DNA from: Escherichia coli
Lineage (GTDB): Bacteria; Pseudomonadota; Gammaproteobacteria; Enterobacterales; Enterobacteriaceae
NCBI RefSeq assembly: GCF_003334315.1
Contig: NZ_QOWR01000130.1
Length of the DNA: 648 nucleotides
Direction: 5' to 3' (one strand)
A model generated the notes under the pieces. The model was given only the letters and a program-made list of their open reading frames with translations, had not been told where the DNA came from and searched no databases. This document shows positions 1 to 648 of the stretch, piece after piece; within the stretch, counting starts at the first letter, position 1, and the number at the start of each line of letters is the position of its first letter. The translations under genes were made by a program, and so were the position numbers.

Positions 1-438
1 AGGCCGCAGTCGGTAACCTCGCGCATACAGCCGGGCAGTGACGTCATCGTCTGCGCGGAAATGGACGAACAGTGGGGCTATGTCGGGGCTAAATCGCGCC
101 AGCGCTGGCTGTTTTACGCGTATGACAGTCTCCGGAAGACGGTTGTTGCGCACGTATTCGGTGAACGCACTATGGCGACGCTGGGGCGTCTTATGAGCCT
201 GCTGTCACCCTTTGACGTGGTGATATGGATGACGGATGGCTGGCCGCTGTATGAATCCCGCCTGAAGGGAAAGCTGCACGTAATCAGCAAGCGATATACG
301 CAGCGAATTGAGCGGCATAACCTGAATCTGAGGCAGCACCTGGCACGGCTGGGACGGAAGTCGCTGTCGTTCTCAAAATCGGTGGAGCTGCATGACAAAG
401 TCATCGGGCATTATCTGAACATAAAACACTATCAATAA
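1..438 (+). CDS. insB: IS1 transposase InsB reading frame (C-terminal part of the InsAB' frameshift-fusion transposase); 5'-partial at window edge
   Basis: Frame 1 is open from position 1 ([145 protein letters not shown]) with a TAA stop at 436..438. The ATG at 61 reported by the ORF track is an internal methionine. From established knowledge, InsB is expressed as InsAB' via a -1 frameshift at a site just upstream of this window, not from that ATG. Confidence 0.92.
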
Positions 439-453
439 GTTGGAGTCATTACC
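431..453. repeat. IS1 terminal inverted repeat (right end, IRR), ~23 bp
   Basis: The IS1 terminus GGTAATGACTCCAACTTATTGAT appears as its reverse complement at the element boundary. The exact inner limit of the IR is approximate. The insB stop codon lies inside it. Confidence 0.8.
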
Positions 454-648
454 CCAAACATCATATAATAATTGATATAAATTATACAAACCCAAAGGAT
501 CCATCCTTATTATCGGATTCAGTGGGTAATTATACAGGTTCCATCCCCCCTCCAGCCCAATGGGGTCTTGTGTAATATACCGCCCCTGCAACGGATCGTA
601 GTACCGGTGACGGTTATAGTACAGCCCTGATTCCTCATCATGCTGCTG
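454..648 (-). pseudogene. Rhs-family (YD-repeat / RHS repeat-associated core domain) protein, 3' end of core plus first 11 codons of the C-terminal variable region; interrupted by IS1, 5'-partial at window edge
   Basis: Minus-strand translation from 648, with no stops: [65 protein letters not shown]. This contains the hallmark Rhs core terminus ([10 protein letters not shown]...GRYI(T/S)QDPIGL...NLYxYxxNP....DPxGL), with [10 protein letters not shown] encoded at 487..516. The frame runs directly into IS1 sequence at 453. GC-rich core-like codon usage at 541..648 gives way to very AT-rich sequence at 454..~500, as expected at a core/toxin boundary. Confidence 0.85.

Follow-up and report, generated by a model that had tools for sequence, protein, structure and literature searches.

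Probable IS1 truncation of an RhsE-site rhs gene in Escherichia coli, with an accidental 26-codon read-through tail

The DNA analysed here, called the window throughout, is a stretch of 648 nucleotides from Escherichia coli in which one end of an insertion sequence abuts the 3′ part of an rhs gene. Positions 1..453 (plus strand) are the right-hand 453 bp of IS1 (approximately IS1 positions 316-768), recognized by their identity to IS1A-family and IS1B copies: identity with an annotated IS1A-family copy in EC09 (L002) is 99.8% across the full 453 bp, and with IS1B copies 99.3%. The right terminal inverted repeat, read directly from the letters, occupies 431..453 (plus strand; GGTAATGACTCCAACTTATTGAT when read on the minus strand), and the last base of the repeat (...AAGTTGGAGTCATTACC) is position 453, exactly where the rhs sequence breaks, which places the insertion junction at 453|454. 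In the ORF list, the 3′ part of insB appears as a plus-strand frame at 61..438, with its stop codon at 436..438. One IS1 end is contained in the window, and the left end lies beyond the 648 bases.

The remaining 195 bases (454..648) belong to rhs and are read on the minus strand, where the frame is open from position 648 for 91 codons and ends at a TGA stop at 373..375. Residues 1-54 of its translation (487..648) are the end of the Rhs core, the aspartyl autoprotease plug, and are matched by two family profiles. Positions 1208-1261 of the 1261 in NCBIfam NF041261 (RHS_core) align to them (E = 1.7e-30), only these 54 final positions being covered since the gene runs off the end of the window, and TIGR03696 (Rhs_assc_core) scores 71.8 bits over the same residues against a cut-off of 32.5. 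The sole Pfam match, a weak one to OCRE at residues 4-28 of the core (E = 0.021), was dismissed as noise. Published definitions describe the Rhs aspartyl protease as two DPxGL motifs set 17 or 18 residues apart, with a PxxxxDPxGL motif at the core boundary (PMC8636562, PMC9637101), and a 17-residue spacing has been described for Rhs1 (PMC8636562). Both motifs are present in the window: DPIGL at 553..567 and, after 17 residues, DPLGL at 487..501, the latter forming part of the PxxxxDPxGL motif (487..516) that ends the core. A cut directly after the second DPxGL sets the C-terminal domain of Rhs proteins free within the cage (PMC8636562, PMC8765631, PMC9637101). The predicted self-cleavage site in the window, positioned from two of these papers (PMC8636562, PMC8765631), is directly after the last leucine of DPLGL, between 487 and 486 on the minus strand. 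Past this point the frame encodes 37 residues, of which 11 are a stub of the native toxin tip (454..486, GC 0.15, identical to L001 7163..7195 of the E. coli CP53 chromosome) and 26 are encoded by IS1 (376..453). Since the terminal repeat ends at 453 and insB stops at 436..438, these 26 codons are IS1 sequence that is mostly antisense to insB.

The first-pass annotation of this DNA had described a chimeric read-through frame, an Rhs core fused to a 26-residue IS1-encoded tail antisense to insB, and had taken the ORF called at 373..591 to be the 3′ end of that frame rather than a gene of its own. The structural claims are borne out. Positions 373..648 of the minus strand form one open frame across the junction, the tail lies inside IS1, and the TTG from which the shorter ORF was called (589..591) is Leu-20, an internal codon of the larger frame. 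The fusion and its frame stand, but the implied direct join of core to IS1 does not, as 11 native tip codons lie between the two. The tail had also been expected to resemble no known domain, and it matched no family in Pfam or NCBIfam; the whole 37-residue peptide had no family match either. The further statement that the product would carry the tail in place of a toxin needs amending: since Rhs self-cleavage takes place directly after DPLGL (PMC8636562, PMC8765631), the tail would instead be released in the cage, as a 37-residue fragment, if this protein behaves as those in the Rhs papers do. The computed properties of that peptide are a mass of 4.6 kDa, an acidic character with a pI of 4.1, and a GRAVY of 0.25.

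A promoter scan of the window returned none, and a terminator scan picked out two weak terminator-like hairpins where shuffled sequences would give 0.5. One of them, TTGGGGTAATGACTCCAA with a T-rich tail (440..457, minus strand), spans the junction, drawing on the end of the rhs sequence and on the IS1 terminal repeat; its match to the consensus is weak and it is probably a chance feature.

The rhs portion of the window could be traced to a native allele. All 195 bases are 100% identical to the chromosome of E. coli CP53 and to about 110 other complete genomes, and the same 195 bp are 100% identical in EC09 (L002) and AMSCJX03 (L003). The CP53 locus runs yncG, yncH, vgrG, rhs, two small ORFs, an old IS1 fragment, an H-rpt (ISEc5) transposase gene and pptA, which places the allele at the vgrG-linked RhsE site of E. 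coli, between yncH and pptA; in published work this site corresponds to b1455-b1461 (PMC3032704). vgrG also lies directly upstream of rhs in AMSCJX03, PEC240 and ATCC 8739, as it does in CP53. The CP53 protein (WP_122056947.1, "RHS element core protein") is intact at 1,402 aa. It carries RHS repeats and, at its N-terminus, DUF6531, and the whole length of the RHS_core profile aligns to it, with 2,768 bits. At the junction, the uninterrupted CP53 gene reads ...gatgtttgg followed by catgatgattc..., whereas in the window ...gatgtttgg is followed by ggtaatgactcc. Past this point the CP53 frame runs for 402 bp, or 134 codons, comprising 133 residues and a stop at L001 7595..7597. Hence the window keeps 11 of the 144 tip residues ahead of IS1, and 133 are lost from the reading frame. 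Because the rhs bases of the window are identical to those of an intact gene that continues for another 134 codons, the insertion removes the toxin.

The native 144-residue tip is glycine-rich and had no match in Pfam, NCBIfam or the PDB sequences. Similarly, the two small ORFs downstream of it in CP53 (L001 7609..8003) had no NCBIfam match. The first encodes 61 aa with a lipoprotein-like signal (MKKYIFLVLFLLCGC), and the second, of 69 aa, overlaps the first through a TAATG stop/start. Judged from sequence, the CP53 tip and its small ORFs (L001 7163..8003) look like an uncharacterized toxin/immunity module. Several strains share a short, diverged IS1 transposase fragment in one position, past the tip and the small ORFs (L001 8025..8123, L002 8803..8901 and L007 7707..7805). 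It appears to be an old remnant belonging to the conserved locus and separate from the recent insertions described below.

The exact junction was not recovered outside this window in any collection searched. A 249-bp query spanning it found no contiguous match in 5,426 complete E. coli genomes, where it was recovered only as two separate pieces, and found none among plasmids and phages. The exact junction pattern gave 0 matches both in species-representative genomes and in JGI metagenomes. Looked up as exact products, the 91-aa partial product, the 72-aa product of the shorter ORF and the two 1,295-aa chimeras predicted from the upstream sequences of CP53 and AMSCJX03 likewise had no record.

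An open run of 26 codons calls for little explanation. Its chance is 0.29 with uniform codons and 0.39 at the base composition found here, and the three frames that enter this end of IS1 give runs of 26, 6 and 0 codons. With these probabilities, and with one frame of three open, the open tail is no more than chance expectation, and about one IS1 element in three inserted this way round will yield this same tail. In public protein data, Rhs C-termini are joined to the tail at seven or more further junction positions (P0001/P0004, P0002, P0003, P0007, P0008, P0016 and P0044), P0007 differing from the tail of the window by two residues; with the RefSeq RhsC of STEC388 included, there are at least eight other Rhs::IS1 junctions with the same tail. 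The protein search listed proteins of up to 160 aa only, so that a full-length copy of the chimera could escape its candidate step. Seven of these records (P0001-P0004, P0008, P0016 and P0044), partial entries named "RHS repeat-associated core domain-containing protein," resemble the window in having the end of the core joined in frame to the same IS1 tail, but six or more other junction positions are represented among them, some within the core, and all of the records lie on short contigs. Two full-length proteins offer closer parallels. The STEC388 "rhs element protein RhsC" (WP_250696811.1) has IS1 in the same orientation a few codons past DPLGL, with the identical 26-aa tail, and the ATCC 8739 "RHS element core protein" (WP_000014857.1) also reads into an IS1 of the same orientation a few codons past DPLGL. 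Both differ from the window in belonging to other rhs loci or alleles and in their junction positions. The ATCC 8739 IS1 (L005 6191..6643) is moreover only 92% identical to that of the window and is entered in another frame, giving a different short tail; it is a diverged variant in the same kind of target site.

Insertions of IS1 into this very allele have also occurred elsewhere. In AMSCJX03, IS1 interrupts the RhsE-locus rhs at the same nucleotide as in the window (between L003 7195 and 7196), but it is oriented the other way round: IRL adjoins rhs, and the tail is GDAANLLI before the stop; the far end of this IS1 is joined to a truncated H-rpt transposase gene, the mark of a deletion. In M37H, IS1 lies 12 bp downstream of the window's junction (between L007 6112 and 6113), again unlike the window in its opposite orientation, with IRL next to rhs, and in its read-through tail (GDAANLLI before the stop); here there is a clean 9-bp target duplication (GATGATTCA), beyond which the tip is retained. 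We considered whether the window and AMSCJX03 insertions could stem from one event, the nucleotide being the same, and rejected this by reasoning from their opposite orientation: when IS copies recombine, a given flank stays attached to the same IS end, so the same site in opposite orientation implies independent insertions. Counting the window, AMSCJX03 and M37H, IS1 has entered this tip allele three times independently, all within 12 bp. GC content drops from about 0.6 in the core to a local minimum of 0.30 exactly at the insertion point. IS1 prefers AT-rich targets, and this preference combined with the GC minimum is a sufficient explanation for the clustering. The core/tip boundary looks like a local IS1 hot spot, and the clustered hits offer a small example of target-site preference shaping the decay of toxin genes. 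Other elements have reached the locus as well. In EC09 (L002 2088..7597), the same allele is split by ISEc1 (H-rpt), with a separate IS1A immediately past an intact tip, illustrating that one locus can gather several different IS hits.

We interpret the window as IS1 truncation of a vgrG-linked rhs gene at the RhsE site, with an accidental 26-codon read-through tail that has no function of its own, and we give this reading a probability of about 0.9. On this reading IS1 has inserted into the AT-rich start of the toxin tip, 11 codons past PxxxxDPxGL, separating the core from the remaining 133 toxin residues and leaving the gene unable to deliver that toxin. The frame entering IS1 is by chance free of stops for 26 codons, which is why a gene caller sees a "chimeric" ORF. 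If the upstream rhs is intact and expressed, we infer by analogy with characterized Rhs proteins that the product would be a toxin-less cage, self-cleaved after DPLGL, with a 37-residue peptide in place of the toxin. A simple insertion and an IS1-mediated deletion or rearrangement both fit the one IS1 end in the window. A simple insertion would have left GATGTTTGG followed by CATGATGATTC at the flank of the IS1 left end, with 9 bp duplicated and the tip and downstream ORFs retained. The kind of event is already known and routine, and the tail is found many times in public annotation. The biological weight of the finding is small, as it adds one more strain-specific IS inactivation of a polymorphic-toxin gene.

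The alternative that deserves most attention concerns expression rather than DNA. The upstream rhs may be broken, truncated or without a start codon, in which case the window would be part of an orphan or dead fragment and no chimeric protein would be made. Precedents exist close at hand: the EC09 allele split by ISEc1 is annotated as two pseudogene pieces, vgrG and rhs upstream of the insertion are partly deleted in M37H, and K-12 rhsE is listed as a pseudogene (PMC3032704). Yet all 1,269 codons from ATG to the junction are open in CP53 and in AMSCJX03, the latter with IS1 at the same nucleotide. We therefore regard a dead upstream gene as a substantial possibility, although the less probable state of the two; it agrees with IS1 truncation on what the DNA contains and departs from it on expression only. 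A bolder proposal is that the toxin-less Rhs is both made and retained, its self-cleaving cage and PAAR-like N-terminus loading onto VgrG and supporting T6SS assembly or firing while the cell is spared a toxin, and that the hot spot recurrently "disarms" the effector. If this were true, the AT-rich first 45 bp or so of the tip would be an IS1 hot spot at which the effector loses its toxin and its structural role is kept. The Rhs encapsulation cage is reportedly required for type VI secretion (Donato et al. 2020, cited in PMC8636562 and PMC8765631). Both protease motifs are intact in the window, independent IS1 hits recur within 12 bp, and full-length read-through proteins stand in RefSeq for ATCC 8739 and STEC388. 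However, the preference of IS1 for AT-rich DNA, acting at a GC minimum, is a simpler account of the recurrence; the junction has not spread, as none of 5,426 complete genomes contains it; and the neighbouring cases show further decay. Nothing here favours a retained cage over simple decay, and we consider retention improbable.

Two more readings were weighed. Multi-copy sequences on both sides of the junction (IS1 and the rhs core), the short length of 648 bases, and a junction found nowhere else in the collections searched are what one might expect if an assembler had wrongly joined two repeats. Such an artefact seems very unlikely to us, however: the switch from rhs to IS1 comes precisely at the final base of the IS1 repeat, inside the AT-rich tip, which is unique, and not inside the repeated core, and a real genome, AMSCJX03, has IS1 at the same nucleotide. 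The other reading takes 373..591 to be a small gene in its own right, encoding 72 aa from a TTG start, as its place in a mechanical ORF list would have it. Its frame, though, is open upstream to the edge of the window, the supposed start codes for Leu-20, around which the match to the Rhs core profile is unbroken, and its 72-aa product has no exact record among those looked up; we give the independent gene virtually no credence, the continuity of Rhs homology across the supposed start refuting it. IS1 truncation of rhs remains the reading we prefer.

For annotation, ORFs that end in this 26-aa tail are IS1-truncated genes and not carriers of a new C-terminal domain. Some of them are named as intact Rhs proteins in RefSeq. 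Read-through ORFs are presented there as intact proteins in STEC388 (WP_250696811.1, L006 2422..6279) and in ATCC 8739 (WP_000014857.1, L005 2389..6195), the former overlapping the IS1A transposase gene by 66 bp. Their equivalents in AMSCJX03 and PEC240 are flagged as pseudogenes, and the same type of event is thus annotated inconsistently.
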